This document shows, one piece after another, positions 20,688-62,232 of a DNA stretch of 64,000 bases. This DNA comes from Candidatus Saccharimonadales bacterium (lineage in GTDB: Bacteria > Patescibacteriota > Saccharimonadia > QS-5-54-17): assembly GCA_040903985.1 (NCBI GenBank), contig JBBDUI010000002.1, positions 29,361 through 93,360 of the forward strand. Direction: 5' to 3'. The notes below the pieces were generated by a model. The model did no database searches. It saw only the letters and a program-made list of their open reading frames with translations, and had not been told where the DNA came from. Numbering within the stretch: the stretch's first letter is position 1; every line of letters starts with the position of its first letter. Made by a program: the position numbers and the translations under genes.

Positions 20688-21688
20688 TGGCAACAGTAAC
20701 ATACGCCTCTACCGGCACCTTTTCTGTACCTGCGAATGTTTATAGCGTCCACCTTGATTGTTATGGGCATCCAGGTGGAGCCTACAGCTATAATACTCGC
20801 GGAGGCCGTGCCTACGGGGACCTTGTTGTTACTCCAGGGGAGACCTTATATATTGGGGTAAATATAGGGGCTGGCACCACCACCTCCGGCGGTAGTGGTG
20901 CTGCTTATTCCTGGGGTGGTGGATATTCGGATGTTCGTAAGGGCGGAAACACGCTTAGCAATCAAAGAGTTGTTGCGGGTGGCGGCGGCGGCCAGTCTTA
21001 TACTTACACAGGGAAAGGTGGTAACGGTGGTGGTTCTTCCGGTGGAAGCGGTTCTACATCGCAGGGTGGTTCAGTTGGTGGTGGTGGAACCCAGTCTTCT
21101 GGAGGTTCTGCCTCGGGTAACGCTACCGTAGGAACCCGGGGACAGGGAGGTAACGGTGGCAGCAGTGGCGGGGCTGGCGGCGGCGGTTACTATGGTGGAG
21201 GAGGTGGCTATAATTATGCAGGTGGTGGAGGTGGCTCTGGGTATATAGGGGGAGTAACCGGCGGAAGTTATAGTACAGGGGGGAATCCAGACAACTCAGC
21301 TAAAGTAGTAATAACTTATACTCCTAACTCTATCCCTTCGACTCCAACTCCCTCAACGCCAACCAGCGGTTTGCGACAACAGGATGGCAGTATTAACTTC
21401 TCCTGGTCCCATTCCGATCCTGATGGAGATGCTCAGGCTTCCTACGCTCTGCGTAGGCAAAAGAGCGGTGGTGGTAACGAATGGTGGGATGGTACTTCCT
21501 GGGTGATAAGTGAAACGTTTGTGTCTACATCTACTCAATCAGTTTCTATTAATACTTCAACATTTGATCCTGGTGCCTACACCTGGAGCGTAGCTACCCG
21601 AGATAGCGTCGGTGCTACATCACCATATTCTTCTGCCAGAACAGTAGAGATTATTCGTTTTGAACGTTGGGGGGTGGTGCAGATATGA
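20687..21688 (+). CDS. Glycine-rich domain protein 3 (Gly_rich-like N-terminus) with the same C-terminal module and the identical tail EIIRFERWGVVQI
   Basis: ATG overlaps the upstream TAA (TAATG). N-terminus ATVTYASTGTFSVPANVYSVHLDCYGHPGG then GGxGG tracts (GGGGGQSY..GGNGGGSSGGSGS..GGGGYYGGGGGYNYAGGGGGSGY). C-terminal module NFSWSHSDPDGDAQASYALRRQK...YTWSVATRDSVGATSPY...EIIRFERWGVVQI. Confidence 0.7.
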   Translation: MATVTYASTGTFSVPANVYSVHLDCYGHPGGAYSYNTRGGRAYGDLVVTPGETLYIGVNIGAGTTTSGGSGAAYSWGGGYSDVRKGGNTLSNQRVVAGGGGGQSYTYTGKGGNGGGSSGGSGSTSQGGSVGGGGTQSSGGSASGNATVGTRGQGGNGGSSGGAGGGGYYGGGGGYNYAGGGGGSGYIGGVTGGSYSTGGNPDNSAKVVITYTPNSIPSTPTPSTPTSGLRQQDGSINFSWSHSDPDGDAQASYALRRQKSGGGNEWWDGTSWVISETFVSTSTQSVSINTSTFDPGAYTWSVATRDSVGATSPYSSARTVEIIRFERWGVVQI

Positions 21689-47487: not shown

Positions 47488-47949
47488 ATGTATCACCCCG
47501 GCCCTACATTCATTACGCAGACCGGTTTTCAAAGTCTAAAAGATAGGCTCGATCAACTCGGTCGTAAGCGGACTAAACTCGGACACGATCTCCACGCCGT
47601 ACAAGAGCCTGGCAAACGCGTAGAGAATGGTAGTTTCTCTACGATCTGGGACCAGAAACTACAGATCGAGGAAACCATTCACGACATAAACGCCACCTTG
47701 CGTAATTCCAGCGTCATACAGCGGCCTACGCGACGTCTGCGCATAACCCTCGGTAGTCAGGTCAAGCTCAAAGGGGGTGACCAGATGCGCGAGTTCACCC
47801 TAGTCGACTCACCGGAAGCCAATCCGAGTATAGGTCTAATCTCCTATAAATCCCCGGCTGGTAGCTCACTGCTAGGCAAGCGCATCGGTGAGCAAGTGGA
47901 GATCGGCAACGGTAAGAAGATTACCTACACCATTCTCGACATCAACTAG
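47488..47949 (+). CDS. greA: GreA/GreB-family transcription elongation factor
   Basis: N-terminal coiled-coil region and a C-terminal FKBP-like motif (ISYKSPAGSSLLGKRIGEQVEIGNGKKITYTIL). ATG at 47488 preceded by a taggag RBS; the ORF is open upstream to 47425. Confidence 0.7.
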   Translation: MYHPGPTFITQTGFQSLKDRLDQLGRKRTKLGHDLHAVQEPGKRVENGSFSTIWDQKLQIEETIHDINATLRNSSVIQRPTRRLRITLGSQVKLKGGDQMREFTLVDSPEANPSIGLISYKSPAGSSLLGKRIGEQVEIGNGKKITYTILDIN

Positions 47950-48910
47950 CTGGATCACACTGTCCCTCCCAGTCACGCAGCGCCTCGCAGCTGTAGCGGA
48001 CTGGGAGCAGAAAATCTTCGAGTGAGTTTAAATACGTCATCGTGCGACTGGTTATATGTTTTACGAGATCCTCTTCGACATTAGGCTGAGTAAGACTGTA
48101 CTCGGCCTCCGCCGCCCAACGTAGGGTATGAGTGAATTCATGCACGATTGTAGAGTTTAATATCCAGTTCGGGTTCCTAATATAAGGTGGAGGTACCTGC
48201 TCTACATCCAACACCCCAGCCTCAGCATGCGTCGGATAGTCACTCAAAGCAGTAGACCCCGGCGCGATTACAATCGGATGGATACGCGGCTGCAGCTCGA
48301 TAATGTCCTGGAGCCACGATAACTCCTTAATTCGCCATGGCACTGAGCCTCCACTAGCGTGACAGCTAGAGCGGGCGCCCATCTCATTTACAGCGCGGCG
48401 TGATAGCTGCAAACCATTGATGCATTTGCGCGGATCACTACTAATTAAAATCGGTATCTCGTGACCGGCAAACTCGCCTGCACTGAGACGCTCTCGGAGA
48501 CACTCCATAGTGGCACTGAGACGGGGGATCTCATATGGAGCCTCGAAAGCAGCGAGTAAAAGCCGCTCCAGGCCATCGCTATCGATCAGTAGGTCTCCTT
48601 CGGAATAAATCCGCACGGTTATCCCGCTATCCTCCATATACCTCGACTCAATCTCGGAGAAGCTACTCAGTTGATCTAGGGTCTCGTTCAAATTAACTTG
48701 AGTTAAATCCTCATGCTGAAGTGGGTTACGCGAGTTATGATTCGGTATCTCTAGCTCCGACTTCACATCTGGCAGTTCACAACCAGGAAAATCAGGCACG
48801 GCTTCCGGCTGAGCAGAGCCAGCTCCACTACTACAGCCCGACAGCGCTAAACTGCCGGCAGCTAGATAGACTGCCAGTTTCGGGGCACGATTTCGAGCTA
48901 CAAACTCCAA
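47942..48910 (-). CDS. Putative lipoprotein with an HExxH zinc-metallopeptidase-like motif
   Basis: Signal peptide plus lipobox (LALSGCSS). HEFTH motif near the C-terminus (IVHEFTHTLRW). Confidence 0.45.
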   Translation of the reverse strand: MEFVARNRAPKLAVYLAAGSLALSGCSSGAGSAQPEAVPDFPGCELPDVKSELEIPNHNSRNPLQHEDLTQVNLNETLDQLSSFSEIESRYMEDSGITVRIYSEGDLLIDSDGLERLLLAAFEAPYEIPRLSATMECLRERLSAGEFAGHEIPILISSDPRKCINGLQLSRRAVNEMGARSSCHASGGSVPWRIKELSWLQDIIELQPRIHPIVIAPGSTALSDYPTHAEAGVLDVEQVPPPYIRNPNWILNSTIVHEFTHTLRWAAEAEYSLTQPNVEEDLVKHITSRTMTYLNSLEDFLLPVRYSCEALRDWEGQCDPAS

Positions 48911-48916
48911 CCTAAT

Positions 48917-49966
48917 CTACCGGCTAAACTCTTCGACCTCGGTTTGGTCGAAAATATTATCTATGAACTGTTGAATCTCACTAAAACCGCCACTTCGTGG
49001 TACCAGAGAAGACCCAGCTTCATTTTGAACCGGTACTAACAGATTTGAAGTGTCGATCACATACTGGCTTGGAGTCTCAGCATCAAGTTGGCGGGCCAGA
49101 TTAGCCAGCTTGAACATCTCTAGTCGTGTTAAGTTGGTCGTAACGTGTGCTTCAAAGACCGCTAATAATGATCGTATAGTCGAAAAGTCAGTTAGTACTT
49201 CTCGACGCATGATCTCCGTCTGCAGTGCCACCACGACCTGCTGCTGGCGGTGAGCGCGATCAAAGTCACTGGTCGTCGTCTGACGCGAACGAGCATAGCG
49301 CAGAGCAGTTTGTCCATCAAAGTGGTGTTCTCCCGCCTCGATAACTAACGGTTCATAACCGTTATAGCCGGGGGCTGGATAGAAAGGATCCTCCAACAGC
49401 TGTTCGACTTCGACCGTGATCCCTCCGACCGCATCGATTATTTTCTCAAAACCTTCGAAGTCAAGAGCTAGATGGTAGTGGATCGGAATGTCAAAGTGCT
49501 CCTCAATCGTAGCGGCCGTCAGCGCTGGTCCACCACCGCGATAATCGTAATTTTCTCCGTAGGCGTGAGCGGCATTGATCTTAGCTGAATCAAACCCAGG
49601 GATAGAGACGTACAGATCTCGAGGGATACCGACTATGGCCATCTTTGGACGCTCGCTATCTGAGTGATCGATGCTAATCAGCATTATCGTATCGCTCAGC
49701 TTTGCCGCCTCATCCACGCCTAGAACTAGTAGATTCGTCCTCCCGGCGTGATTAGCCAACGGGATAACTCGTACATACCAATAGCCAGCAGCGATTAAGA
49801 GGGCGGCCGCTAGAATAATAACTGCAACTGCTGCTAGAACGAGTTTAAGTAAGTGATGGTGTTTGGGCTTCTCACTATGACGCGCCTTTCTGCGTTCACG
49901 ACGAGTTGGCTTATGGCTCTCCTCCGGAGATTTATCATCAGGTTGATAGTAAAAATAATCGATCAT
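48917..49966 (-). CDS. LytR-CpsA-Psr (LCP) family cell-wall polymer transferase
   Basis: N-terminal basic region plus TM anchor. LCP core motifs (NLLVLGVD...SDTIMLISID...IPRDLYVSIPG...KINAAHAYG). Start chosen at the internal MIDYFYYQ; the ORF is open upstream to 50110. Confidence 0.78.
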   Translation of the reverse strand: MIDYFYYQPDDKSPEESHKPTRRERRKARHSEKPKHHHLLKLVLAAVAVIILAAALLIAAGYWYVRVIPLANHAGRTNLLVLGVDEAAKLSDTIMLISIDHSDSERPKMAIVGIPRDLYVSIPGFDSAKINAAHAYGENYDYRGGGPALTAATIEEHFDIPIHYHLALDFEGFEKIIDAVGGITVEVEQLLEDPFYPAPGYNGYEPLVIEAGEHHFDGQTALRYARSRQTTTSDFDRAHRQQQVVVALQTEIMRREVLTDFSTIRSLLAVFEAHVTTNLTRLEMFKLANLARQLDAETPSQYVIDTSNLLVPVQNEAGSSLVPRSGGFSEIQQFIDNIFDQTEVEEFSR

Positions 49967-50474
49967 TAACTCTATTCTACTGCTAAATGTGAAAAATAAA
50001 CAAAAAGGACATAATTTGCATCGTTCGAAAATGCTCGCTACACTACACCTCATGCGACGTAAAACTCCAGCCAGCCACCCTATCACTATCGCTGTTCTAT
50101 TAGTGGTCATGGTGGGGGCGAGCGTTTTCCTCCTTCAGCAGCCAGATCAGGTCGAGCTGTCTACTAATGAGACGGCCAGTCAGTCTACTGAATCCGACTC
50201 TACCGGCTCAGTTCCTCTCGACATCGACAGCATTGGTGATCTGTCACAAATTGTACCGACCGGTAGTACCTCACCCCAGAGCACCAGCTCAAACCCACAA
50301 CCGACTCAAGGCAGCAGTACCTACGCGCAATTCGAGGGCACCCAGCAAACCGTTCAGCCGCAAGCTAGCACCGCCAACTAGCGGCACCATTTTCGTAATA
50401 AATTTATTTGCGATCGTCAAAAAAGTCGTTACAACCTACGCCACCTAGGAGTGAATTGCAGGGGAGAAACGTCT

Positions 50475-50550: not shown

Positions 50551-51000
50551 ATGGCACTTATTCGTTATAACAACCCCTTTAAAGAGTTGGAAGAGATGCA
50601 AAACCAGCTCAATAAGCTATTTGACGAGTCATTAACTTCAACCGCGAGGTCAGGGCTGACTACACCTACAGCCGATGTCTACATGAACGAGGATGAAGAC
50701 AAGCTCATCGTCGAAGCGCACCTGCCGGGCTATGAGCAAGACGACGTCGAGTTGCAAATCGAGAACGGCGCGCTCATCATCCGGGCCGACCGCCAGGAAC
50801 GAAAGGAGCAGGATGAGAAGCGTAAGTACATCCTGCGAGAAAGCTCCAGCAGCTACTACCGCCGGATCGGTCTGCCGAAAAATGTCGAAGCCGATAAGAT
50901 TATGGCCAACTTCGACAACGGTGTACTAGAAGTGAACGTACCGTTTAAGGAACTACCGAAGCCGCAAACCGTCAAGATTGAAGGAAAAAAGAAGAAGTAG
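50551..51000 (+). CDS. Hsp20/alpha-crystallin family small heat-shock protein
   Basis: Alpha-crystallin domain pattern (...DVYMNEDEDKLIVEAHLPGYEQDDVELQIENGALIIRA...GVLEVNVP). Strong RBS aaggaggt. Confidence 0.9.
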   Translation: MALIRYNNPFKELEEMQNQLNKLFDESLTSTARSGLTTPTADVYMNEDEDKLIVEAHLPGYEQDDVELQIENGALIIRADRQERKEQDEKRKYILRESSSSYYRRIGLPKNVEADKIMANFDNGVLEVNVPFKELPKPQTVKIEGKKKK

Positions 51001-51088
51001 TCAGTACCACTAATCATTGCGATCCGCCTCTCGTTTACACACTGCATTTAGTGTTGTATAGTATAGACAATTTAGTGGAGATATACGG

Positions 51089-51487
51089 ATGCATGAAAAA
51101 AACGGCCTGCGATTTACGAGCTGGGACGATGTAAAAGAACACGAGGGTACGGACACTATCGAGCGCATAAGCCCTAACTGCGATCTCGACCGGCCCGATT
51201 TGCCCGATGAGTTACGTGAGGAGATGCAGGCGCTTTATCCGCCCGAAAACTGGGGGCCGCTCTGGGATCTAGAGGAGCGCCGCAGTTTTATGTTTAACCG
51301 CATCATCAGTGTGGCCGCAGAGGGGGAGATCGATGCAAGAACGATTGTAGCTGCATATCGCTCCCGAGATGCGTTGCAAAAACTAAAAGAAGATGCGAAA
51401 ACTCTACTTCGCCGCCAAGCCGCCAGAAATGAATTTCGTCGCCTAAAAATAGCTAGTCGTAGCCTCGAGACGGCGGACACAGCCTAG
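51089..51487 (+). CDS. Hypothetical protein (132 aa)
   Basis: ORF. No motif recognised. Confidence 0.45.
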   Translation: MHEKNGLRFTSWDDVKEHEGTDTIERISPNCDLDRPDLPDELREEMQALYPPENWGPLWDLEERRSFMFNRIISVAAEGEIDARTIVAAYRSRDALQKLKEDAKTLLRRQAARNEFRRLKIASRSLETADTA

Positions 51488-51518
51488 TTAAGATCTGGCT
51501 ACACCAAACGCTATATTC

Positions 51519-52115
51519 TTGTACCATAGAGGTATGAGTTTGTATCAATCCTTAACTCAACTACCGACCGCCCAGGCGGCTCAACTCCTGCTAGGACAGA
51601 CGCTCGTACGTAGCCAGGGCACTACGGTGCTGGCCGCGCGAATCGTCGAGACTGAGGCCTATCATCAATCAGATCCGGCCGCCCACACTTTCCACGGTCC
51701 TAGTAAGCGCAACCAAACGATGTTCGGTCCGGCTGGACACGCCTACGGTATGCACCACTGTCTTAACGTCACTGCCGGCGAAGCAGGGGAGGGGGCTGGG
51801 GTGTTAATCCGAGCCATCGAACCGCTAGAGGGACTTGAAGCTATGGCTCGAAATCGTAAACTGCCCCGTGTAGTGCTAGATACTGCTGACGGCATCCGTC
51901 AGCTCGGCAGTGGGCCGGGTAAGCTAGCTCAAGCTCTCGGTATCACTCTCGAACTAAACGGCCACGACCTAACCCGACCGCCCCTGCAGCTCATTGAGAC
52001 GGGTACGGTAACCCCGACAAGCATCGTCACTACCACCCGCATCGGCATCACTAAAGCGGCCAGTGAACCACTACGATTCTATATTAAGGACAGTTCGTTT
52101 ATCTCGCGTCCTTAG
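51519..52115 (+). CDS. mpg: DNA-3-methyladenine glycosylase (Mpg/AAG family)
   Basis: GTTVLAARIVETEAYHQSDPAAHTFHGPSKRNQTMFGPAGHAYGMHHCLNV matches the conserved AAG/Mpg core. Confidence 0.85.
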   Translation: MYHRGMSLYQSLTQLPTAQAAQLLLGQTLVRSQGTTVLAARIVETEAYHQSDPAAHTFHGPSKRNQTMFGPAGHAYGMHHCLNVTAGEAGEGAGVLIRAIEPLEGLEAMARNRKLPRVVLDTADGIRQLGSGPGKLAQALGITLELNGHDLTRPPLQLIETGTVTPTSIVTTTRIGITKAASEPLRFYIKDSSFISRP

Positions 52116-54532
52116 TAACGGTCGGCTTGCTTCCGGCTGGAGTAAAAGTAGTAGGCGAAACTCATGATGAGTAGCAAGATTAACAGCCACCACCATAGGC
52201 TCATATCGCTGTCTGCTACCAGATCGACTTCAGCTTCTGTCTCGTTCTCATCCGTAGCCTGGAGTACTTCACCGTCGTCCTGACTCTGTGCAATTATATC
52301 GTTATCGTCCTGTGCACCTAATACTTCACCTTCAGAGTCAGCTGTAACACCAGTGTTGGTACTAGTTTGCTGAGCTGGCTCTTCTGTGTCGGTATCGTCA
52401 TCATCTTCCACTGCCGGATCTGCACTTAGGGCTGCGAAAGTGGTGAAATGCCATGTCAGGATCTCGGTATTGCCATCGACAATCTCATAACATTCACCAT
52501 ACGCCAAAGGATTAACACCATTACACTTAGAGATCATCTCCCATCCACCATCAACTGCGTAGCCCACATTGTTTGCTTCCACGCCTTCGAGAACGACAGT
52601 AACTATCTTGTCGAATATCAATGTTGCACTATCAGAGCCGACTTTTAAGGCCGTACCGTTAAACGTAAAGCCGCTCGGAGCAGCTACATTAGTATCTGCG
52701 CGAGGTGGAGATAGTTCTCCGTTCCAGCTAGATGGGGCCGATATAGTTGTATCATCTGGTATCGTTACGAGTACATTCGACACTGTAGATGCACTACTTC
52801 TAATCTCAATTGGCACAGAGCCTAAGGAGTTTAATTGTACCCGCCGCTCAACGACTATATCTACCCCGTTAACACTAAGTGTATCGGCAGGTCCATCCAC
52901 TACCTGGCTACTTAAATCGAGCGAGGTATTGTCACTAAATGCTATGTGGTTAATATCACTCGGTAAATCAGCATTACCTGGTGTAGTACCGCCAGGCGTA
53001 GGTGATCCTGATCCAACTACTATAGTATCGTTTGAGTCAGTTGTACTCTCGCTAGCCTCCTCGATCGTAGTGAAGATTGTGCAATATTTAACTGTAGCTG
53101 CAGTACATGTTCCGTTGCCACCCTGAATGTAGATTGCTTTATTGAAAGTATTGTCAGCTATAAGAGCCGATACATGGAAATCTGAACCATCTATAATTGG
53201 TTCATAGTCTGCGCTCGTGTAAGCTTTAGCGGCTATCCCGCCCGAAGCGATGTTAAATTCATTGTCAACGATGTTGTTGTCGACAACTACCCAAGAGGTA
53301 GAGCCGACACCAAGACCTTCATCTGTAGCAGTCACATCATTATCACTAACAGTATTACCACTGTTCTGTAGGCTTATACCATGTCTAGCATCTATATCAT
53401 TTCCTGAAATTAGAGCACTACCTACGGAATATTGAGTGGTGGTCTGAATACCCGTCAAAGTGTTAACGATGCGGTTAGACTCAACCGTTACTCCTATACC
53501 TGATACAGAGACACCTACATTAGAACCAACTGCAGTACTTTCGATTCTGAATCCCCGCAAAGTAGTACCATCGGCGCGTAGATCAACTAGACGCCCAGTA
53601 TTACCTATAATTGTCGGGCTTAAGCTGGTAACAGCCTCGATTGTTAGCCCTGAATTACCACCAAAAGAAGTGCCAACTGGAGCATAAGTACCGGCACCAA
53701 CTCTAACAGTTGAATCTGCAGGTGCTAAGTTAACTACATCTTGAAGAGTATCACCGTCATGAACTAAAAACGCACCATCTGCAGCGAACTTAAGTAAGGG
53801 ACTATTGCGATAGTCACCAATCGCCCACTGAGTGTCTTCTTCAAACTCGAAACTATTAGAGTTAAGTAAGCTCGTCAAGTCTCCGCCACTAAGTAATGTA
53901 ACGTCAACACCTAGACCAATACCTTCATTGTTATTAATAAAGGTATTGCTGGAAATTAGCAGTCCTTCAACTCCATCAGTACTACCTATACCTGCTTCAT
54001 TATCGATGAAGACGTTACCGACAATCGATACATTAGTAGGAGCTGTACCAGCAAACTGCAGAGAAACTCCAGTATTAAATCCGGCAATTGTGTTGTTACT
54101 AATAGTCAAACCGTCACTTCGCGCCGAGCCGATACCACGATCGATTACGTCTGAGCTGCCAACTATCTCAAAGCCGTCGATGGTTACATTATTTGCATCA
54201 AATACACGAATTTCCCCCTCGATAATAGCATCGCCTTCAGTTAACGATTCTAAAGTTAGGCCATTCTGGTTGATTAGAATATCCTCGTCATAGTTACCAG
54301 CTTCTACGCACACTGCTCTATCATCTGTGGTAACAGCGTCAATAGCAGCTTGGATAGTCTCGTAATCTTGTCCTCCACCAACTCTGATATCACAGTGATC
54401 GGTAGCCGATACAGACACTGGCACAAGAGCGAGAGTACTCGCAAACACTAGAGAAGCGACCGCTAGTGTGTGGATCGCCTTAGTTAAACTTTTAATCTTT
54501 CGCTCTACCCACCCTGGTATAGCGTTGCCCAT
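52112..54532 (-). CDS. Large secreted right-handed beta-helix repeat protein with N-terminal signal/TM and C-terminal TM anchor (surface protein, possible polysaccharide-modifying)
   Basis: Repeated parallel beta-helix-type motifs (ISNNTIAGFNTGVSLQ, GNVFIDNEAGIG, ISSNTFINNNEGIGL, ISGNDIDARHGISLQNSGNTVSDNDV). Acidic Asp/Glu-rich spacer. C-terminal hydrophobic anchor WWWLLILLLIMSFAYYFY followed by basic residues. Confidence 0.65.
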   Translation of the reverse strand: MGNAIPGWVERKIKSLTKAIHTLAVASLVFASTLALVPVSVSATDHCDIRVGGGQDYETIQAAIDAVTTDDRAVCVEAGNYDEDILINQNGLTLESLTEGDAIIEGEIRVFDANNVTIDGFEIVGSSDVIDRGIGSARSDGLTISNNTIAGFNTGVSLQFAGTAPTNVSIVGNVFIDNEAGIGSTDGVEGLLISSNTFINNNEGIGLGVDVTLLSGGDLTSLLNSNSFEFEEDTQWAIGDYRNSPLLKFAADGAFLVHDGDTLQDVVNLAPADSTVRVGAGTYAPVGTSFGGNSGLTIEAVTSLSPTIIGNTGRLVDLRADGTTLRGFRIESTAVGSNVGVSVSGIGVTVESNRIVNTLTGIQTTTQYSVGSALISGNDIDARHGISLQNSGNTVSDNDVTATDEGLGVGSTSWVVVDNNIVDNEFNIASGGIAAKAYTSADYEPIIDGSDFHVSALIADNTFNKAIYIQGGNGTCTAATVKYCTIFTTIEEASESTTDSNDTIVVGSGSPTPGGTTPGNADLPSDINHIAFSDNTSLDLSSQVVDGPADTLSVNGVDIVVERRVQLNSLGSVPIEIRSSASTVSNVLVTIPDDTTISAPSSWNGELSPPRADTNVAAPSGFTFNGTALKVGSDSATLIFDKIVTVVLEGVEANNVGYAVDGGWEMISKCNGVNPLAYGECYEIVDGNTEILTWHFTTFAALSADPAVEDDDDTDTEEPAQQTSTNTGVTADSEGEVLGAQDDNDIIAQSQDDGEVLQATDENETEAEVDLVADSDMSLWWWLLILLLIMSFAYYFYSSRKQADRY

Positions 54533-54746
54533 TACGAACTCCTTTTAAGTTTATAGATCTATAAATATGGTGTCGTGGGTTCGCTACTAGCTCGATGTAT
54601 TTCAAGCGACCAGGTGAAAAATACACTTCAACGCTGACTTTTTGCCTGTTTTAACTGTTTTTATTGTAGTTATCCTAATCACGGCAGAATAGAAAATAAC
54701 AAGCATGAACATTATCTAGAAATATTTCAAATAAACCACATCCGAG

Positions 54747-56015
54747 CTACTTCTTATCTAACACCGTAATAGTAGCTTCTTCGAGTACTTCGAGCAGCTT
54801 CTGCGCCTGAGCGGCGGCAGTGTAATGCGCGACTATCCGGCGGCTCTCCGCACCCATCGTTTTACTTAGCACCGGATTAGATATAATGTCGGCCACCTTT
54901 TGCGCAAAATCGTCCACGTCATTGTGAGCAAAATAGCCATTCACGCCATCCTGCAACACTTCGGTCACTTCGGGATCACAAATCACTAACGGCAAACCGA
55001 GCTGAGTCGCTTCATGTAGTACTAGGCCCTGTGTATCGGTCAGAGAAGGAAAGACGAAGACGTCGCCACTGGCATAAGCGGCGCCAAGCTCTGACCGTGC
55101 TATCTTACCGGTGAATATGATGTCTTGCGCGTGAGTCTGCTCGGCGGCTAACTCTTTGAGCAAGGGTACGTGCTGATTACTGTCTCCGACCAGGATCAGT
55201 TTAGCCTCCGGCACTCGCAGCTTAATCTGGTCGAACGCCCGAATTGCCAACTCTAGGTTCTTCTCACTGCCTAGACGGCCGACATTTAATATTATTTTAT
55301 CTTTCGCACCTAACCCCCAGCGTTTCCGAAACTTATCGATTGCAGCCTGATCAGTACCAAGCGGAGTGATACCGGTCGGGATGACGTGAATCGGGGCAGT
55401 AGTCTTCCAAGCGCGCAGCTGAGCGGCTACCTTGCGTGAGGGAGATACAACTGCCTGACAGCGGTTATGCAGTACGGTTAGCATCTCAGCCACTAATTTC
55501 TGCGTCCAGTGCTCTGTCTCATCACGCTGGGAGAGTGAGGTTAGAAGTTTACGCAGTTCCGGAGCTTTAGCCCCTAAAGTAAGTGGAGAGCCCATCACCT
55601 GGGCAATCACAGCCGGCACCACCCGTGGGTAGTGCCGAATATATTCATATAAATCGGTACAGTACATTGCCACTAAGGGCGTATCATTCTTCAGTGCAGC
55701 ATATACACCTAGCATGCCAATCTGCCCTGGAGTAGTAAACTCAATCACATCGAGCTGGAGCTCGCGAATTCGCTTGACCTGCTTGGGCGGGAAGAAGAAG
55801 CTAGTCATCTGGTCCTCGAAAAAAACGTCTTTTATAGCCGGTATGCGCAAGATGCGACTTGCTTCGTCATAGACTACTCGTTTTATCTTAATGCCCGGGG
55901 CTACTACGAACACTTCGTGTCCCAGCGCCTCCAGCTCACGCTTCGTCTCATCGACTACAAAAGTGATGCCGTTAATGGTCGGGTGGTAGGTGTCAGTAAA
56001 GATGCCGATGCGCAT
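54747..56015 (-). CDS. Glycosyltransferase family 4 (GT-B fold)
   Basis: C-terminal GT4 signature (GDVFVFPSLTDTQGLVLHEATQLGLPLV) with the EX7E-like pattern. Confidence 0.85.
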   Translation of the reverse strand: MRIGIFTDTYHPTINGITFVVDETKRELEALGHEVFVVAPGIKIKRVVYDEASRILRIPAIKDVFFEDQMTSFFFPPKQVKRIRELQLDVIEFTTPGQIGMLGVYAALKNDTPLVAMYCTDLYEYIRHYPRVVPAVIAQVMGSPLTLGAKAPELRKLLTSLSQRDETEHWTQKLVAEMLTVLHNRCQAVVSPSRKVAAQLRAWKTTAPIHVIPTGITPLGTDQAAIDKFRKRWGLGAKDKIILNVGRLGSEKNLELAIRAFDQIKLRVPEAKLILVGDSNQHVPLLKELAAEQTHAQDIIFTGKIARSELGAAYASGDVFVFPSLTDTQGLVLHEATQLGLPLVICDPEVTEVLQDGVNGYFAHNDVDDFAQKVADIISNPVLSKTMGAESRRIVAHYTAAAQAQKLLEVLEEATITVLDKK

Positions 56016-57181
56016 TATTGGATTACCAGCTTTTGATAAATCGCTACATAGGCGTTCAGCATGATCTCGTGCGAGTGTTCGCGCTCCACAATCTGGCGAG
56101 AAGCCGCCCCGTAGCTTTTTAGGCGCTGCGGGTTACCTAGTAGATCGATCACCTGGGAAGCTATAACCCTCGGCTCTAGATCTGCCAGCAGGATACCGTT
56201 CTCACCCGGGCGAGCTAATTCGCGTAAGGCAGCAATGTCGGCTGCTATCACAGGTAGGCCGCAAGCCATCGCCTCTAGTGTCACGATACTTTGCAGCTCT
56301 GCCGGAGAGGTGATGATAAAGCTATCAGCCGCATTATATAGGGCCGCCTTATCTGCTTCCGCCACAAAACCTGTGAAAGTTATATCCTCACTTAAGCCTA
56401 GCTCTGCCGTTTGTCTCTGCAAACTATCGGCGGCCTTACCCCGGCCGGCTATAACTAAGTGGGCGGGAGTCTGCTTAATTATATGAGCCATAGCCTCGAT
56501 TAAGACATCTAGTCGCTTCTCGCCGTCCACTCGTCCTAAGTAGAGTAAGAGCGGCCGATCCTGAGGCAGGCTAAACTCTTTTACTACCTTGGCGGTATCG
56601 ATTCCCGACCGGAAAGTCTCCGCATCGACGCCATTCGTCACCGCTTGGGCGGCTTGATCGAGGCCATGCCGCTGCAGTAGAGCGACGGCGGTCGGAGTAG
56701 GGGAGGTGACGAAATCGGCCTTATTATGAAACCACACCAGATAACGCCAACAGAGACGAGAAAACGACTCTTTAAATAGTTTCAGCAGAGTTAAGTTTAG
56801 ATAGGCGTTTTCCGGCATGAAGTGATTAGTAGCTACTACCGGAATCTTATACCGACGCGCCCAGAAAAGCGCCGACCAGCCGATGAAGCTAGCCATGTGA
56901 ATGTGGATAACATCCGGTTGGGTCTGTTTGATGATCTCTCGACCGTGCCAAAACGGCCAGTAGCTGACACGATAGCCTCGGTTAGCAAAAAAAGTGAGAG
57001 ACTTCTCGCGGTAGATGGTATAGTCACCGTCCTGTTCAGTATACGAACTCAGCTTACTACCCGGTGCCCACACACTAGTAGATAGACCGCGACGGTTTAA
57101 ATCCTGGACTAGGCGTCGCTCGAACAGGGCGCCACCATCGTAATTCGGCCAGTAACTTTCACTTACGAGTAGAATTTTCAT
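56015..57181 (-). CDS. Glycosyltransferase family 4 (GT-B fold)
   Basis: C-terminal GT4 signature (ADSFIITSPAELQSIVTLEAMACGLPVIAADI). The stop of this gene overlaps the start codon of the downstream GT4 gene by 1 nt. Confidence 0.85.
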   Translation of the reverse strand: MKILLVSESYWPNYDGGALFERRLVQDLNRRGLSTSVWAPGSKLSSYTEQDGDYTIYREKSLTFFANRGYRVSYWPFWHGREIIKQTQPDVIHIHMASFIGWSALFWARRYKIPVVATNHFMPENAYLNLTLLKLFKESFSRLCWRYLVWFHNKADFVTSPTPTAVALLQRHGLDQAAQAVTNGVDAETFRSGIDTAKVVKEFSLPQDRPLLLYLGRVDGEKRLDVLIEAMAHIIKQTPAHLVIAGRGKAADSLQRQTAELGLSEDITFTGFVAEADKAALYNAADSFIITSPAELQSIVTLEAMACGLPVIAADIAALRELARPGENGILLADLEPRVIASQVIDLLGNPQRLKSYGAASRQIVEREHSHEIMLNAYVAIYQKLVIQ

Positions 57182-57314
57182 GCAGTAAACAGTATACCAG
57201 TAGCGACGAACCGTGTATAAGGGGCTTTGCCCTATTGCAATATTACCTATATTATTGTATTATAGTGTCAATTTCACGGCCATTCGGCGGTGGGAAAGTT
57301 CTTCGACAGATAGG

Positions 57315-57932
57315 ATGATCAGGATGCGTAGATTCGTAATCGGTCAGAGCGTGATCGCTCTGATAGCTGTCTTCGTACTTCCACTCGCGTACCAGTTCGG
57401 ACCAGTAGTCGCCTTCGGGGTGGCGCTGGGAATCAGCTGGATTCCGATGCAGCTGATCGCGCGTCTCTTCGAGCACCGTTCGCTCTGGCCGCCTCGCAGC
57501 CAGTACCGTTCGTTCTTCTGGGGAGATCTGCTACTGCTGCCCGGAATAGCCGCCTGTATCGCGCTAGCGGTCAATCGGTTACCGGCAGGCGATCACTGGT
57601 TTCACCAGAGATGGTGGAACTTGTTCTCCCTGCTGGTTGGGGTGATTGCCGGACTGATCTTTCACGAGGCCGATCGTGACAACTACAGCTCGAGGGAGCT
57701 TAACTCTCCAACCAAGCTGTGGCACGACTGGTTCGTCTACCCGGTATTCACCTACTACTTGCTCAGCCGCGCTCCGGCGCTGTTCGAGCGAGTCAATGGC
57801 ATCACCGTGTTGGCGATCGCCCTCTTGGCCGGCTGGCTCTATCTCGGGCTCACTGACGGCAAGCGCGACTACCCCTATGCCCACGTCGGGTATCACTGGG
57901 GTGACCGGACGCCGTCCATTTCCACCTTCTAG
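57315..57932 (+). CDS. Hypothetical polytopic membrane protein encoded in a visibly GC-rich segment
   Basis: Five hydrophobic helices. The surrounding approx 57.3-57.95 kb is GC-rich by eye, and ORFs in other frames (57579-57896 minus, 57676-57984 plus) are interpreted as GC-driven artefacts. Start chosen at MIRMRRFVIG. Confidence 0.5.
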   Translation: MIRMRRFVIGQSVIALIAVFVLPLAYQFGPVVAFGVALGISWIPMQLIARLFEHRSLWPPRSQYRSFFWGDLLLLPGIAACIALAVNRLPAGDHWFHQRWWNLFSLLVGVIAGLIFHEADRDNYSSRELNSPTKLWHDWFVYPVFTYYLLSRAPALFERVNGITVLAIALLAGWLYLGLTDGKRDYPYAHVGYHWGDRTPSISTF

Positions 57933-58011
57933 ATCATCCTCTCGCTCACCGGAGCGCTCGTCACTGCAGTCTGACTGCGGCTGACGGGCGCTCCGTTTTC
58001 ATTTAAGCGGA

Positions 58012-59289
58012 CTAATTTTTCCGAATTATATCGCGATAGACGTAGGCACTGGTGCGAATGGTGCGTTTCTGATCCTGACGATCTACTTGCACTAATCCAA
58101 AACGAGGCCAGTAACCGGTCGACCACTCATAGTTATCTAGCAACGACCAGTAGAAATAACCCCGGATATCGGCTCCATCTGCCATCGAGCGCTGCATGGC
58201 CGCTACATGGCGAGTAATAAAATCGGCTCGGCGTTTATCCTCGGCATCGGCGATGCCGTTCTCCGTTATATACATCGGTAGGCCGTAGCGCTTTAGTTTC
58301 TGGGTAATCTTATACAGCCCTTCGGGGTAGATCTCCCAGCCAAAATCACTCCGTTGCTCGGCCGGAGCCGGCACCTCCCACTGACGCAGACGGGCTACTC
58401 GCGCGCGAAAATGAGCCCGAGTATAGTACTGTACACCTAGAAAATCTTGGGCACCTTTGGTATGACGAAACTTACCGCTACCACCGTTATAGTCCAGCGC
58501 CCAGGCTACCGGCTTGAGCCACCAGTTGCCAGCTTCAAACAGAACGATGCTGTGCGTAAAGCCGATCTGGGCTAGCGGCCGCTGCCGTTTCATTACCCTA
58601 TAAGCCGCCTTATGGGCTGCCACGAAACGGCGCCGTGCCAGTAGATACTTCAGAAAACTCTTCTCCTGATGCGGCCAGCCGGGCCAAAGAGGAGAGCCTA
58701 AGTAGCGGGAGATGAGATAGCTCTCTGGTTCATTAAAGGTAGCCCAGAATTCAACTAAATCGCCTAGTTCCGTGCTCACATATCTTGCATAGCGCGCAAA
58801 CAGCTCTGGGAACTCTCGACCATGCCAGCCCCCGGCCGCTTCCAGCCAGGTCGGATCGCTGAAGTGGTGCAGGCTAACGAACGGTGTAATGCCGGCCTCG
58901 TGTAGGGCAAGCAGTACCTGACGGTAGTGCTCAACTGCCGCCTTATCAAACTTGCCTGGTTTCGGCTCAATACGCGACCACTCGATCGAGAAACGAAAGC
59001 TGTTTAACTCAAGCTCCTGCATCAACGCAATATCCTCGGGGTAGCGGCGGAAGTGATCGCAAGCCAAACCATTTATATAGTTAGACCTCTCCTCAGCCTG
59101 TGTCTTCACTTTGGGCCAAGCCGGTATATCACCATAGCGGCTCTCGGCCGTCGCCATCCAATCCTCGATGTGATCTTTTTCCCATTCGGTCCAGTTGTTG
59201 CGTTGATGGCCCTCGATCTGATGGGCAGCCGTTGCGGCACCCCAGAGAAAATCTCGCGACTGAGAGTCTGCTGTATTCATATGTCTCAC
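58012..59289 (-). CDS. Glycoside hydrolase family 1 beta-glucosidase
   Basis: GH1 signatures: N-terminal LNSFRFSIEWSRIEP, acid/base TFNEPESY, nucleophile YITENGIADAED. Confidence 0.9.
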   Translation of the reverse strand: MRHMNTADSQSRDFLWGAATAAHQIEGHQRNNWTEWEKDHIEDWMATAESRYGDIPAWPKVKTQAEERSNYINGLACDHFRRYPEDIALMQELELNSFRFSIEWSRIEPKPGKFDKAAVEHYRQVLLALHEAGITPFVSLHHFSDPTWLEAAGGWHGREFPELFARYARYVSTELGDLVEFWATFNEPESYLISRYLGSPLWPGWPHQEKSFLKYLLARRRFVAAHKAAYRVMKRQRPLAQIGFTHSIVLFEAGNWWLKPVAWALDYNGGSGKFRHTKGAQDFLGVQYYTRAHFRARVARLRQWEVPAPAEQRSDFGWEIYPEGLYKITQKLKRYGLPMYITENGIADAEDKRRADFITRHVAAMQRSMADGADIRGYFYWSLLDNYEWSTGYWPRFGLVQVDRQDQKRTIRTSAYVYRDIIRKN

Positions 59290-59354
59290 TATAGATATGT
59301 TTCAGTATCAGCACAATTGAATCCGATACCGTATATAACGTATATAATGATCTC

Positions 59355-60377
59355 ATGAAGCTTTCCCGTTCTACCTCTCGCCGCCTACTCTATAGCTGTG
59401 GCGCACTCTCGCTGAGTCTCGGTATAGCTTTTCTAGTCGTACGCTTCATCCCTCACTCGACTCCAGAGTATGGCGTCACCTTCAGTGCGAAATATGCCGA
59501 AGAGCTAGGTCTCGACCCGAACGAGACCCTAGAAGCTATTCTGAGTGAGCTAAAACCAGCCCATGTACGTCTGATGAGCTACTGGGACCGACACGAACGT
59601 GACCGTGACCGTTACGACTTCACTGAACTGGATCAACAATTCGATCTAGCCGAACGCTACGAGGTAGAGGTGCTGCTCGCCATTGGTCAAAGACAGCCAC
59701 GTTGGCCGGAGTGTCATGTACCCGAGTGGGCCAAACAACTATCAAACACTGAGTATGAAATGGCTCTGCTCAAATATCTCCACACTGTGACTGATCGTTA
59801 CGCTGACCAGCCAAGGCTAGAGGGGTACCATTTGGAAAACGAGGCTGCTAACGCTAGCTTCGGTCGGTGCCCTCCTTTCAATAACGGATTGCTGCGACAA
59901 GAATACGCGACGGTAACGGCTGCTGATCCGGATACACCCATCACTATTAGTGTCAGTAATCAATACGGTATACCACTACAGCCACCGCTCGCCGACGAGT
60001 ATGCCATGTCAATCTATCGCCAAGCATACTTCGAATTGGGGGGAAGACAGATCTATTGGAACTATTCATTCGTCCCAGCCGAATGGCACCGGCTACGCGC
60101 CTGGGCAATCCAGCTCATCCACTGCCGCAAAACCTACATCCACGAGCTACAGACCGAGCCGTGGGGTAGACAGGCTACCGTTAACCTGTCCCTAGCCGAA
60201 CAGGCCGCCAGTATGGACCCGGATAAGCTGCGCGCTAACGTCAACTATGCCGAACGAATCGGCACACCGAAAATCTATCTCTGGGGTGGAGAGTGGTGGT
60301 ACTGGCGTCTCCAGAAATTTGACGACCCGACCCTCTGGCACACTGTCCAAGCCATCTTCAACCAACCTGAAATCTAA
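59355..60377 (+). CDS. Putative TIM-barrel glycoside hydrolase (GH5-like / cellulase-like), membrane-anchored
   Basis: N-terminal TM/signal. HLENEAAN (candidate acid/base NE-motif) and ELQTEPWG (candidate nucleophile Glu). Family assignment uncertain. Confidence 0.45.
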   Translation: MKLSRSTSRRLLYSCGALSLSLGIAFLVVRFIPHSTPEYGVTFSAKYAEELGLDPNETLEAILSELKPAHVRLMSYWDRHERDRDRYDFTELDQQFDLAERYEVEVLLAIGQRQPRWPECHVPEWAKQLSNTEYEMALLKYLHTVTDRYADQPRLEGYHLENEAANASFGRCPPFNNGLLRQEYATVTAADPDTPITISVSNQYGIPLQPPLADEYAMSIYRQAYFELGGRQIYWNYSFVPAEWHRLRAWAIQLIHCRKTYIHELQTEPWGRQATVNLSLAEQAASMDPDKLRANVNYAERIGTPKIYLWGGEWWYWRLQKFDDPTLWHTVQAIFNQPEI

Positions 60378-60501
60378 AACCAAGATTTAAATTTAGACTA
60401 CTGCTGTTTTGTACTGACTTTTTTGACGATCGTCAAAAAATTTATTACAAGTTTTTTTGACTTTGGATGGATATTTAGTGCGATCTTGGCTTTAGTTATA
60501 G

Positions 60502-62232
60502 CTAATTTCTAGTATCGTCGGGACGGGCAATCCGCTTCTTCTCAGTCACGTTAAATGCTTCGAGATACTTACCAAATAGCAGCCGAGTCTGAGCATTCAG
60601 AGCAGCCATACTACCGAAGACTATCAAGGTGACCGGCACAAAAGCCCACTGTAGCACCATCATCACGCTACGCAGCGGACCGTAACGATCCGGCCGCGGC
60701 GGCAGACTCATCAGACTGCTTGCAATTGGTGCTAGGAGACCGATTAAAGCCCCGGTTTGGATCAAGCTGACGATGGTCGGTAACTGCACGGCTAAAATCG
60801 AATCCGATGCCTCAACATTAATCAGTAGCGGCAGCCAGCCACCGCCCGCCAGAATGATCGGGGCGACAACCCAACTGAGATAGCCCTCGATCTGCCGAAA
60901 GTTATGCACGATTCGACTAGAGAGAGGTATCTCCGGCTCATGAAATGAACGGCGTAGGACGAACGGAGTATCGGCCACCCCCCAGGCCCAGCGACGTAGC
61001 TGATAAAACTGCGCCTTAAAGGTGCGCCAGTAACCTTCAACCAATACAGCATCCTGATAAATCGGACTGAATATAGGTAAGACTTTATGCTCGCCCTTGT
61101 AGGCGAAATAGGTGCGCCAGTACTGATGTCCATCCTCGACGATCGAAGCGACATTCCAGTAGTCAACATCGATAAGGGTTTGCAAGCTCTGGGCATGAGC
61201 CGAGAAGTTACGCAAACGGTGGGGTCGTAGCGCCTCCATCAACACCCAGAAGCTATTACTGACCGCGATGACCCGCATCAGAGCCGGAGCGTCCCAGATG
61301 TTGTTAAAGAACATCGGAATCGGTTGGTAAGAGTTATGTGTCCGGTTCGGTGTGATGGCATAGCAGTAGGCTGCCTCAGCAAAATAATTCGGACTGGGAC
61401 GGTTATCGACATCAAGTGTCGTCACCATCACTTGCTCGGGATTAATCGCCTGCTCCTCGATATAGCCGGTCAGCCAGCGCGCAGCATAGGTGATATTACC
61501 GGCCTTAGCCTTGGCTTCACCCGGCATATCGGCTGGATGCTCGATCGCAACCGCGGTTTTAAAGATTGGCGCGTGCTGAGCTGCTAAAGCCCGCGCGGCC
61601 GCTGCCGTCTCAGCCCCACCCCGTGCCTCGTGGGCGATGATTAGTATCATCTTATGTGCATCGTAGTTACTATCGATCACGGCCTGCACGGTCGAAGCTA
61701 ATATCTCAGCATCTTCGTTATAGATCGCAATAATTACTGCATGGTAGATATCTTCCGGTGGCATGATCGTATCTCTAGCTTTATGCGCCGACACCAGATA
61801 CTTACTATAGTATTTTATAACCTGTCGCTCGCGCCAATTCTTAGCCTTACTCAGCCGCAGCTGTAAACGCTCCAAGGCGAGCTCTGTATCATTCAAATCC
61901 ATCAGCCGTAGTTGCCAGTCAACCCGACGGCTGAGCCGCATCCGCCAGTAAGCACGAATTAGACGGTTACTATAGCCAAATATCTTGGTCAGCCACCACA
62001 GCGTATAGCCGATCAGTATATAAGCGGCCGTAACGATCGAAAAGTAACTCACCACGATCACTATGATAAAAAAAGACCAGGACATCGCCCCGGTTGCGAT
62101 TTCTAGGACGCGCTGTGTACGATCATGATACTGACTGCCGGCGACGGTTTTCATACATAACCAGCGTATAGACTTATAGGTACCGGGTAAAGAGCTAGGC
62201 GGAGACACAAGGGTAGTAAGTCTTCCACTCAA
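60502..62232 (-). CDS. Processive family-2 glycosyltransferase (cellulose/chitin/PNAG-synthase-like) with N-terminal and C-terminal TM helices
   Basis: D,D,D,QxxRW signature: TLDVDNRP, and QLRRWAWG within YQLRRWAWGVAD. Multiple TM helices. The start could be the internal Met at 62154. Confidence 0.78.
   Translation of the reverse strand: MSGRLTTLVSPPSSLPGTYKSIRWLCMKTVAGSQYHDRTQRVLEIATGAMSWSFFIIVIVVSYFSIVTAAYILIGYTLWWLTKIFGYSNRLIRAYWRMRLSRRVDWQLRLMDLNDTELALERLQLRLSKAKNWRERQVIKYYSKYLVSAHKARDTIMPPEDIYHAVIIAIYNEDAEILASTVQAVIDSNYDAHKMILIIAHEARGGAETAAAARALAAQHAPIFKTAVAIEHPADMPGEAKAKAGNITYAARWLTGYIEEQAINPEQVMVTTLDVDNRPSPNYFAEAAYCYAITPNRTHNSYQPIPMFFNNIWDAPALMRVIAVSNSFWVLMEALRPHRLRNFSAHAQSLQTLIDVDYWNVASIVEDGHQYWRTYFAYKGEHKVLPIFSPIYQDAVLVEGYWRTFKAQFYQLRRWAWGVADTPFVLRRSFHEPEIPLSSRIVHNFRQIEGYLSWVVAPIILAGGGWLPLLINVEASDSILAVQLPTIVSLIQTGALIGLLAPIASSLMSLPPRPDRYGPLRSVMMVLQWAFVPVTLIVFGSMAALNAQTRLLFGKYLEAFNVTEKKRIARPDDTRN

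Follow-up and report, generated by a model that had tools for sequence, protein, structure and literature searches.

A Widespread, Divergent Cellulose-Synthase-Like Glycosyltransferase Family of Saccharibacteria beside a Mosaic of Putative Envelope-Glycan Modules

Introduction

Several described systems for envelope-glycan synthesis resemble, each in part, a group of genes at positions 52112-62232 of a 64-kb stretch of DNA (hereafter the window) from a metagenome-assembled genome of Saccharibacteria (TM7, Patescibacteria; Candidatus Saccharimonadales). The most interesting element in this region is a gene for a protein of glycosyltransferase family 2 (GT2), which belongs to a widespread, apparently essential and uncharacterized family whose members in other lineages are accompanied by a small membrane partner.

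In the cellulose synthase BcsA (4HG6/4P00) and in RiGT2, the mixed-linkage glucan synthase of Romboutsia ilealis, a membrane-embedded GT-A fold is combined with a DxD motif, an ED base, QxxRWAxG on an interface helix, KAGN, and FxVTxK, the last being the gating-loop signature that coordinates uridine diphosphate (UDP), which reads FAVTAK in BcsA and FNVTLK in RiGT2 (PMC10374906, PMC8892547). The clostridial ccs system (CcsA/CcsB/CcsZ), from a single-membrane bacterium, joins to its synthase the membrane-tethered glycoside hydrolase (GH) family 5 enzyme CcsZ, and the beta-glucosidase BglX is encoded in some bcs operons (PMC8892547). In Enterococcus faecalis, the adjacent family 4 glycosyltransferase (GT4) genes bgsB and bgsA make monoglucosyl- and diglucosyl-diacylglycerol (MGlcDAG and DGlcDAG) (PMC3083329). 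IcaA/IcaD and PgaC/PgaD each pair a GT2 with a small membrane protein. The Mollicutes have stand-alone GT2s (the Mycoplasma glucan/galactan synthases and MG517), products of essential genes that make surface glycan or glycolipid without export partners in single-membrane cells with reduced genomes.

The composition of the envelope and the host-interface molecules of Saccharibacteria and the candidate phyla radiation are largely unknown, and no publication on a cellulose synthase of Saccharibacteria turned up in the literature library searched. An earlier note on the window had interpreted the region as one locus for the synthesis and remodeling of a beta-linked exopolysaccharide or cell-wall glycopolymer. 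The analysis described here supports this interpretation in part and shows, instead of a single polysaccharide operon, a mosaic of modules for envelope glycans. The reading to which we lean, with slightly more confidence than doubt, is that of a beta-glucan synthase without PilZ and BcsB together with two hydrolases, located beside a glycolipid module and accompanied by an independent surface protein.

Sequence and Fold of the GT2 Protein

The earlier note had placed the GT2 gene at 60502-62232; the gene is there, but its start is most likely the ATG at 62154, which gives a protein of 550 aa and agrees with a 100%-identical NCBI protein (P0001) and with all homologs. Among 28 diverse members of the family, E176 (in EERGG, which replaces DDG), D248xD250, E340-D341, and Q385LRRW389 were invariant, and a longer series of motifs was found to be invariant or nearly so (YNE, EERGG, KAGN, D248xD250, SYQPIP, NFSAHAQS, VED341GHQYW, Q385LRRWAWG, and F534xVT537xK539). 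The window protein carries IYNED, KAGN, DVD, EDG, and QLRRW, as well as FNVTEK at residues 534-539, in which T537 and K539 show no variation among members and F534 is kept in at least 90% of them. The combination of KAGN, RWAxG, and FxVTxK suggests that the protein is nearer to the cellulose-type beta-glucan synthases than to the chitin/hyaluronan synthases. Sub-threshold family matches among the same 28 members were most frequent for Glycos_transf_2 (16/28) and Glyco_trans_2_3 (14/28), followed by CelA (10/28), Chitin_synth_2 (6/28), and NodC (5/28).

The AlphaFold2 model of the protein (pLDDT 87.6, pTM 0.87) contains a pair of helices at the N terminus, the GT-A domain, the long helix that bears QLRRW, and three further hydrophobic helices. 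The corresponding topology is two N-terminal transmembrane (TM) helices, the GT-A domain, the interface helix, two more TM helices plus a hydrophobic helix, and the C-terminal FNVTEK. When the model was compared with the PDB by Foldseek, the top matches were the Chlorella-virus hyaluronan synthase CvHAS (7sp7), BcsA (9b8v/4p00/5ej1/4hg6), the Xenopus hyaluronan synthase XlHAS1, and the chitin synthase Chs1, all with a probability of 1.0 and 470-630 aligned columns, TM helices included. These matches, along with QxxRWAxG and FxVTxK, bear out the earlier assignment to the processive synthase class with QxxRW, and motifs and fold set the protein apart from the dolichol-phosphate-sugar-type GT2 enzymes. 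Thus, the GT2 protein appears to be a very divergent, membrane-integrated enzyme of the processive-synthase (cellulose-synthase-like) class, its processivity being suggested by its likeness to that class.

Compared with BcsA, to which it has ~13-17% identity, the protein has EERGG in place of DDG and ~4 TM helices plus one hydrophobic helix instead of eight TM helices, and it ends after the gating loop, so that equivalents of BcsA TM7-8 and of the PilZ domain are missing; BcsB is missing as well. Both flanks of the last hydrophobic helix (493-526) are positively charged, which would place both of its ends in the cytoplasm and make it an IF3-like interface helix, so that the gating loop would stay cytoplasmic. 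The GT2 protein has neither a PilZ domain nor another regulatory domain, nothing being modeled past residue 526; the lack of PilZ follows from the end of the protein 11 residues past FNVTEK. Control by cyclic di-GMP had been suggested on account of a GGDEF gene at 146-835 (- strand). This gene is real (Pfam, 136 bits), but the link is unsupported because the GT2 protein has no PilZ domain and the GGDEF gene lies ~60 kb away. The reported absence of BcsB, BcsC, and PgaABD was confirmed by domain scans of the ORFs (open reading frames) at 38-64 kb. If Saccharibacteria have a single membrane, as is assumed here, the missing outer-membrane partners are to be expected.

The Mollicutes GT2s offer a further comparison; the Saccharibacteria family has a motif set of its own (VEDGHQYW, NFSAHAQS, and the C-terminal FxVTEK).

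Distribution and Putative Essentiality of the GT2 Family

More than 7,500 relatives of the GT2 protein were detected at E<=1e-3, and the matches listed were nearly all Saccharibacteria or metagenome entries. The family, which belongs to the core genes of Saccharibacteria, is present in at least 588 species-representative genomes. Most lineages have the GT2 gene beside a gene for a small TM protein, nrdR or an mraY-like gene, and beside none of the partners that it has in the window. The small protein has three TM helices and 105-130 aa, and in 64 of 82 loci its gene lies directly upstream of the GT2 gene on the same strand, with overlapping reading frames in some. Examples are L004:9608-9997, L025, L007, and L030, the L numbers denoting genome loci retrieved from related genomes. 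Two sequence clusters of this protein are homologous to each other (hhalign probability 98%), and downstream of the GT2 gene nrdR or an mraY/wecA-like gene follows in most lineages. The small protein is reminiscent of IcaD/PgaD, and a GT2 with such a partner in most Saccharibacteria recalls IcaA/IcaD and PgaC/PgaD. Unlike in those systems, the partner is absent from the window and the GT2 motifs are cellulose-synthase-like; the likeness proposed is that of a GT2 accompanied by a small membrane protein.

Two other candidates from the window were rejected. The 239-aa membrane protein (57213-57932) as the small partner gave an hhalign probability below 1%, and a second 550-aa ORF (38032-39684), considered as a GT2 paralog, is an FAD-linked oxidase.

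An indication of the importance of this gene pair was obtained from Southlakia epibionticum. Table S1 of Wang et al. 2023 (PMC10633639) lists SEML1_0125 as a "glycosyltransferase family 2 protein" of 564 aa that has a BcsA-type (e4p02A1) domain assignment and a weak match to PF13632; it is preceded, with a 4-bp overlap, by the 105-aa hypothetical protein SEML1_0124 and has a PH-domain gene, a SurA-like gene, and thrS as neighbors. The neighborhood of locus L004 is identical. Both SEML1_0124 and SEML1_0125 were flagged as core families and called GD/ES/ES, i.e., essential, in transposon sequencing (Tn-seq), with 54 insertions in SEML1_0125 in the input DNA and 1, 0, and 0 after passaging; the main text of that paper is silent on both (PMC10633639). 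The GT4 protein SEML1_0337, assigned to K19002, and its GT4 neighbor SEML1_0335 were also called essential (PMC10633639). Orthology between S. epibionticum and window genes is here deduced from length, domain calls/annotation, and synteny, not from sequence alignment.

The GT2 family spans hundreds of species, escapes domain annotation, and has a putative ortholog that is essential in the sole Tn-seq data set found for the group, which makes it a concrete, testable candidate for the synthesis of an essential envelope glycan. A bolder proposal, made tentatively and with more doubt than belief, is that it might be an unrecognized, phylum-wide, essential family of minimal cellulose-synthase-like machines, making an indispensable beta-glucan for the envelope or for host attachment. 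The BcsA core would be truncated after the gating loop, without PilZ or BcsB, and would be completed elsewhere by the 3-TM partner; in the clade of the window, the adjacent partner gene would have given way to a GH1 gene whose frame overlaps that of GT2 and to a new family of clan GH-A, the two enzymes remodeling the glycan. If true, this would be the smallest cellulose-synthase-type architecture described and would bear on the question of which parts of BcsA are needed for polymerization and translocation.

Gene Neighborhoods and Organization of the Region

A total of 80 genome loci around GT2 relatives were retrieved and searched with all window proteins, the neighboring genes were clustered, and a neighbor-joining tree of the GT2 proteins was built. 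Among these 80 loci, there was no GT4 pair at >=35% identity, no beta-helix protein, and no counterpart of the membrane protein. The clade of the window in the tree comprised L022, L091, L001, L090, WIN (the window), L005, L006, L085, and L086. In this clade, the small 3-TM partner is absent beside GT2 and a GH1 gene lies directly downstream instead, the two frames overlapping by 14 nt in L085, 17 nt in L090, and 4 nt in L091, abutting in L001, and being separated by ~30 nt in L022. The GT2-GH1 arrangement is an old pairing restricted to this clade. The GH-A gene stands beside GT2-GH1 in L001, L090, L091, and L133. The earlier observation that GH1 and a second TIM-barrel hydrolase are associated with GT2 thus holds for the clade of the window; the co-location of the three genes is beyond chance, as it is found again in related genomes. 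For the co-location of the beta-helix gene, there is no support of this kind.

The interval between GT2 and mpg differs greatly within the clade. It is empty in L005 (72% identity) and L086 (64%), holds GH1 alone in L085 (67%), and holds all six genes in the window. In L087, the slot contains GH1, the membrane protein, GT4b, and GT4a, and the contig begins inside GH1, so that GT2 is not visible. On account of this variation, from empty to six genes, the 10 kb is to be regarded as a variable slot beside a core gene.

The features of the region are listed in Table 1. All six ORFs of the earlier note were confirmed by ORF scan and domain searches, but its list was incomplete, a seventh ORF for a multi-pass membrane protein having been omitted. 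Database entries (NCBI or Logan) of 100% identity, located on a 747-kb contig, were obtained for each of three window proteins.

Table 1. Features of the variable slot and the adjoining GT2 gene, in window coordinates.
Feature	Position	Strand	Basis
Beta-helix surface protein, 806 aa	52112-54532	-	NosD/PbH1 repeats (Pfam 46 bits)
GT4a, 422 aa	54747-56015	-	Glycos_transf_1 + Glyco_transf_4
GT4b, 388 aa, first gene of two-gene GT4 unit	56015-57181	-	Glycos_transf_1 + Glyco_transf_4
Multi-pass membrane protein, ~205 aa	57315-57932 (open from GTG 57213)	+	Matches no family
GH1, 425 aa	58012-59289	-	Pfam PF00232, 280 bits
Putative clan GH-A hydrolase, 340 aa	59355-60377	+	N-terminal TM + TIM barrel
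Abutting 21-nt inverted repeat, 86% complementary, T-rich	60409-60450	no strand	Between convergent GH-A and GT2 stop codons
Putative GT2-like synthase, 550 aa	60502-62154 (ORF to 62232 from TTG)	-	Motifs, fold

The cluster is flanked by DNA-repair genes, mpg at the left and nfo at the right. Since its genes lie on both strands and a palindrome is present at 60409-60450, it comprises at least five transcription units and no single operon; the palindrome is probably a bidirectional terminator that splits the GH-A and GT2 transcription units. No direct repeats marking an insertion were found around the cluster, just short chance matches and one intergenic palindrome. A promoter and terminator scan of 51.9-62.5 kb gave no excess over shuffled sequence (10 vs. 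11.7 and 8 vs. 7.9, respectively) and served only to lend weak backing to the start assigned to the membrane-protein gene. GC content at third codon positions was 0.36 in the beta-helix gene, 0.50-0.58 in neighboring genes, and 0.75 in the membrane-protein gene. The claim of a single 10-kb polysaccharide locus is contradicted by the empty or GH1-only slots of L005, L086, and L085 and by the number of transcription units. The apparent "exopolysaccharide cluster" would be better annotated and tested as three or four independently inherited modules.

Several observations concern the genes around the slot. In L001, L090, and L091, an AA_kinase-family gene (~240 aa) lies immediately upstream of GT2 on the same strand, with a 3-bp gap in L001, and in the closer relatives of the window the divergent nfo occupies this position. 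About 2 kb to the left of the cluster, the window contains a LytR-CpsA-Psr (LCP) glycopolymer ligase gene (48917-50110, - strand) and, 2-4 kb to the left, a 322-aa ORF without a family match (47942-48910, - strand). In L087, a 327-aa gene that matches no family comes after an LCP gene, and L086 has an LCP gene in the same neighborhood, which assigns the LCP gene to the stable backbone outside the variable slot. The gene order in L085-L087 is hsp20, clpB, and mpg; in the window, hsp20, a 132-aa ORF without a family, and mpg were found at 50551-52115, and a search for clpB across all 64 kb was negative, tblastn yielding no more than a weak AAA match in dnaX.

The Two Hydrolases

Membership of the first hydrolase in GH1 is clear from Pfam PF00232 (280 bits against a cut-off of 22.6) and from the intact TFNEP acid/base and ITENG nucleophile motifs. 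It has neither a signal peptide nor a TM helix and is, as far as its sequence indicates, a cytoplasmic beta-glycosidase. The earlier note had named it a beta-glucosidase; the GH1 membership stands, but the specificity was left unassigned because the score for the TIGR03356 BGL equivalog (290 bits) is below the cut-off of 478. Its best PDB matches were 6z1h and 1vff. The latter, its best natural sequence match, is an enzyme that we take to be a membrane-associated alkyl-beta-glycosidase.

The second hydrolase belongs to a family of 716 detected members, mostly stand-alone proteins of ~350 aa. It has an N-terminal TM helix (10-33), and N162-E163, E264, E268, Cys120, and Cys172 were invariant in 29 members, the nucleophile Glu and the strand positions being taken from knowledge of the clan and not mapped on the model. 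The AlphaFold2 model (pLDDT 92.1) shows a single 300-aa barrel behind the TM anchor. Foldseek gave 838 PDB matches at E<=1e-3, the top 50 listed being all TIM-barrel glycosidases (of families such as GH5, GH10, GH35, GH42, GH39, and GH1). The best single match was endoglycoceramidase II, a glycolipid-cleaving GH5 enzyme, and the fold is about equally similar to this enzyme, GH10 xylanases, GH35/GH42 galactosidases, GH5_18, and PslG (TM-score ~0.5). Sequence and model fit a membrane-anchored, extracytoplasmic retaining glycosidase of clan GH-A outside the established families. The source annotation as a GH42 beta-galactosidase is an over-annotation, as the protein has a single barrel and no full-length profile match; the Pfam GH42 match is partial (32 bits, profile positions 9-140 of 376).

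The surroundings of the GH-A gene were examined in 49 metagenomic loci, each having 3 kb or more of flanking sequence. A GT4a-like gene was found in 10 of them, a small GT2 in seven, and both GT2 and GH1 in just two, implying that GH-A is associated with glycosyltransferases in general. The gene sits in a conserved SNase ... Exo_endo_phos backbone. In L001 (14351-16096, - strand), a 581-aa protein joins GH-A to a small PF00535 GT2 domain, and in L091 (7596-9462) each of the two has its own gene, the genes being neighbors whose frames overlap. The fusion protein would be a bifunctional enzyme, loosely comparable to the GH17-GT2 glucan synthases.

The GT4 Pair and the Membrane Protein

Both GT4a and GT4b match Glycos_transf_1 and Glyco_transf_4 (E 1e-30 to 1e-36), and their frames overlap by 1 nt, in agreement with the earlier description. 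The best NCBIfam match of GT4a was Mgs (NF049988, alpha-monoglucosyl-diacylglycerol synthase) with 143 bits against a cut-off of 400, followed by IagA/BgsA (83 vs. 460) and Dgs (59 vs. 500); GT4b scored 78.5 bits for Mgs. Neither protein passed the Mgs, Dgs, or BgsA equivalog cut-off. The relatives of GT4a number thousands in Saccharibacteria/Patescibacteria, many of them JGI-named 1,2-diacylglycerol 3-alpha-glucosyltransferase, and Mgs (KEGG K19002) is its nearest characterized family.

The overlapping GT4b-GT4a pair is kept in L089 (53%), with no GT2 nearby, and in L087 (55%), together with the membrane protein (43% identity), whose gene is divergent from the pair. A role of these enzymes in polymer synthesis, as proposed earlier, is not favored by this independence or by their nearest characterized relatives, the diacylglycerol glucosyltransferases. 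On account of its likeness to the adjacent GT4 glycolipid pairs of Gram-positive bacteria (bgsB/bgsA; PMC3083329), the pair is treated here as a separate module that is independently conserved and probably makes a glycolipid rather than a polymer, by analogy and short of established family membership. It differs from BgsB/BgsA and the Acholeplasma Mgs/Dgs in that its scores lie far under the equivalog cut-offs and a membrane protein accompanies it.

The Beta-Helix Protein

The beta-helix protein has TM helices at both ends (19-44, which may be a signal anchor, and ~771-797) and contains two PbH1/NosD blocks, a ~200-aa module, an acidic linker, and the C-terminal TM anchor. No full-length relative was found by HMMER among 1.84 billion representative proteins; there were matches at the level of modules only, the ~200-aa module being common to many surface proteins of 1,000-1,600 aa. 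A search of PDB sequences gave no match at E<=0.1. The proposal that it is a polysaccharide lyase or hydrolase was rejected, since only generic NosD/PbH1 repeats and no enzyme family or structure were matched. The gene is absent from the equivalent slot of L087, and its product is most readily regarded as a lineage-specific surface protein that either evolves fast or is a recent acquisition.

Proposed Function and Alternative Explanations

A possible mechanism for the preferred reading involves three modules. In the first, the GT2 protein would work like a stripped-down BcsA: its GT-A domain, on the cytoplasmic side, would bind a UDP-sugar (UDP-glucose most likely) and transfer the sugar onto the non-reducing end of a beta-linked chain that rests against the Trp of QLRRW. 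The chain would be threaded through the TM bundle of the enzyme itself while the C-terminal FNVTEK loop closes over UDP. The GH-A hydrolase, tethered to the membrane on the extracytoplasmic side, would trim or release the polymer in the manner of BcsZ or the clostridial CcsZ, and GH1 would handle short beta-glycosides in the cytoplasm, a BglX-like role inside the membrane. In the second module, the membrane protein and the two GT4s would most likely glycosylate diacylglycerol stepwise, as do BgsB/BgsA or Mgs/Dgs. The third module would be the independently acquired beta-helix surface protein. In this picture, the folds, the motifs, the gene order among the relatives, and the lack of PilZ are observed, and the sugar, its linkage, the processivity, the substrates of the hydrolases, and the lipid acceptor are deduced.

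The first module may be compared with the clostridial ccs system and with BcsZ/BglX, with which it shares a synthase and a membrane-tethered GH-A hydrolase in a single-membrane bacterium, with a beta-glucosidase-type gene attached (PMC8892547). It differs in that the window GH-A fits no GH family and matches GH5, GH10, GH35, GH42, and GH39 equally, the beta-glycosidase is a cytoplasmic GH1 rather than a secreted GH3, and neither CcsB/BcsB nor acetyltransferases are present.

A number of observations weigh against this reading. The GT2 protein passed no curated cut-off in Pfam or NCBIfam, with no Pfam match at E<=0.01 and 17 bits for NCBIfam CelA against a cut-off of 699, and searches of PDB sequences with the protein alone or with a profile of 28 family members returned noise only. 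In the structural comparison, the TM-score with solved synthases was only ~0.40-0.45, and hyaluronan synthase, an N-acetylglucosamine (GlcNAc)/glucuronic acid enzyme, scored equal to BcsA. With ~4 TM helices, the protein may not be able to build a channel alone, and searches with hidden Markov models in six frames of the whole window found no small TM partner. The QxxRW motif is shared by lipid glucosyltransferases of family GT21 that are not processive. As for the hydrolases, GT2-GH1 adjacency is confined to a single clade and would amount to one evolutionary event; in the window, the GH-A gene is interposed on the opposite strand, so that GT2, GH1, and GH-A are not co-transcribed; GH-A loci seldom contain both GT2 and GH1 (2/49); and a cytoplasmic GH1 could not act on an exported polymer. 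In S. epibionticum, the putative GH1 ortholog SEML1_0266 is non-essential and unlinked to GT2 (PMC10633639).

Among the other explanations, the one that survives best, unlikely as it is, regards the region as a glycolipid locus. The GT2 protein would be lipid-directed, and maybe processive, making beta-glycosyl-diacylglycerol like the Mycoplasma GT2 or GT21-type enzymes, the GT4s would make alpha-glycosyl-diacylglycerol, and GH1 and GH-A would turn over the headgroups. The relation of GT4a to Mgs/K19002, the matches of GH-A to endoglycoceramidase II and of GH1 to 1vff, and the essentiality of the putative S. epibionticum GT2 and GT4 orthologs, which suits membrane-lipid functions in a reduced genome, are all consistent with this view. 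On the other hand, the GT2 protein contains both FxVTxK and QxxRWAxG, its alignment with polymer synthases extends from end to end and takes in the TM helices, and the endoglycoceramidase match is no better than those to GH10, GH35, GH42, and GH5_18 (E 1e-10 to 1e-8, TM-score ~0.5).

Slightly less probable is the synthesis of a GlcNAc polymer by the GT2 protein, as a chitin-, PNAG-, NodC-, or hyaluronan-like enzyme that would act in other lineages with its small TM partner as in IcaA/IcaD or PgaC/PgaD, the adjacency of GH1 being incidental. Hyaluronan synthases head the Foldseek list, sub-threshold NodC and Chitin_synth_2 matches were obtained, and the small partner is upstream in 64/82 loci and has a putative S. 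epibionticum counterpart that was called essential. Against these stand the cellulose-synthase-type signatures KAGN, QxxRWAxG, and FxVTxK, the absence from GT2 of the WGTR-type loops of chitin/hyaluronan synthases (motifs taken in part from PMC10374906), CelA matches (10/28) that outnumber those of NodC, and the lack of a PgaB/IcaB-type deacetylase nearby in domain scans of the surrounding ORFs.

The original view of 52112-62232 as one exopolysaccharide locus, in which GT2 polymerizes, the GT4s decorate or prime, the hydrolases remodel, and the beta-helix protein is a lyase or adhesin, perhaps under cyclic di-GMP regulation, appears improbable. All seven genes are envelope- or glycan-themed and lie within 10 kb, GT2, GH1, GH-A, and GT4 are grouped again in various permutations in other Saccharibacteria (L001, L090, L091, L092, and L087), and the LCP ligase gene is 2 kb to the left. 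Nevertheless, the genes are distributed over both strands in at least five transcription units, the closest relatives have either an empty slot or GH1 alone in it, the GT4 pair is found without GT2, the beta-helix gene is compositionally foreign, absent from L087 and without a full-length relative, and PilZ is lacking while the GGDEF gene is ~60 kb off. Equally little credence is given to the absence of any functional link, with the GT2-mpg interval as a permissive insertion hotspot for unrelated carbohydrate genes: slot content does range from empty to six genes among close relatives, GH1 is unlinked and non-essential in S. epibionticum, and most GH-A loci have no GT2, but the GT2-GH1 frame overlap persists down to 45% GT2 identity and GH-A is repeatedly found beside glycosyltransferases (GT4a-like 10/49, small GT2 7/49, and the GT2 fusion in L001).

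Other Observations in the Window

Outside the region, a 1,001-aa ORF without a Pfam match is followed at 17682-21688 by an overlapping 340-aa protein with an Ig-like domain and a weak ALK/LTK glycine-rich domain; judged by their sequences, the two may be a surface or secreted pair. The GC content is lower at 14-38 kb of the window (0.42-0.49). In addition, a gene for a PMT_2/ArnT-like GT-C glycosyltransferase is present at 5722-7353 (+ strand), and a class A penicillin-binding protein (transglycosylase + transpeptidase) is encoded at 39770-42022 (+ strand).

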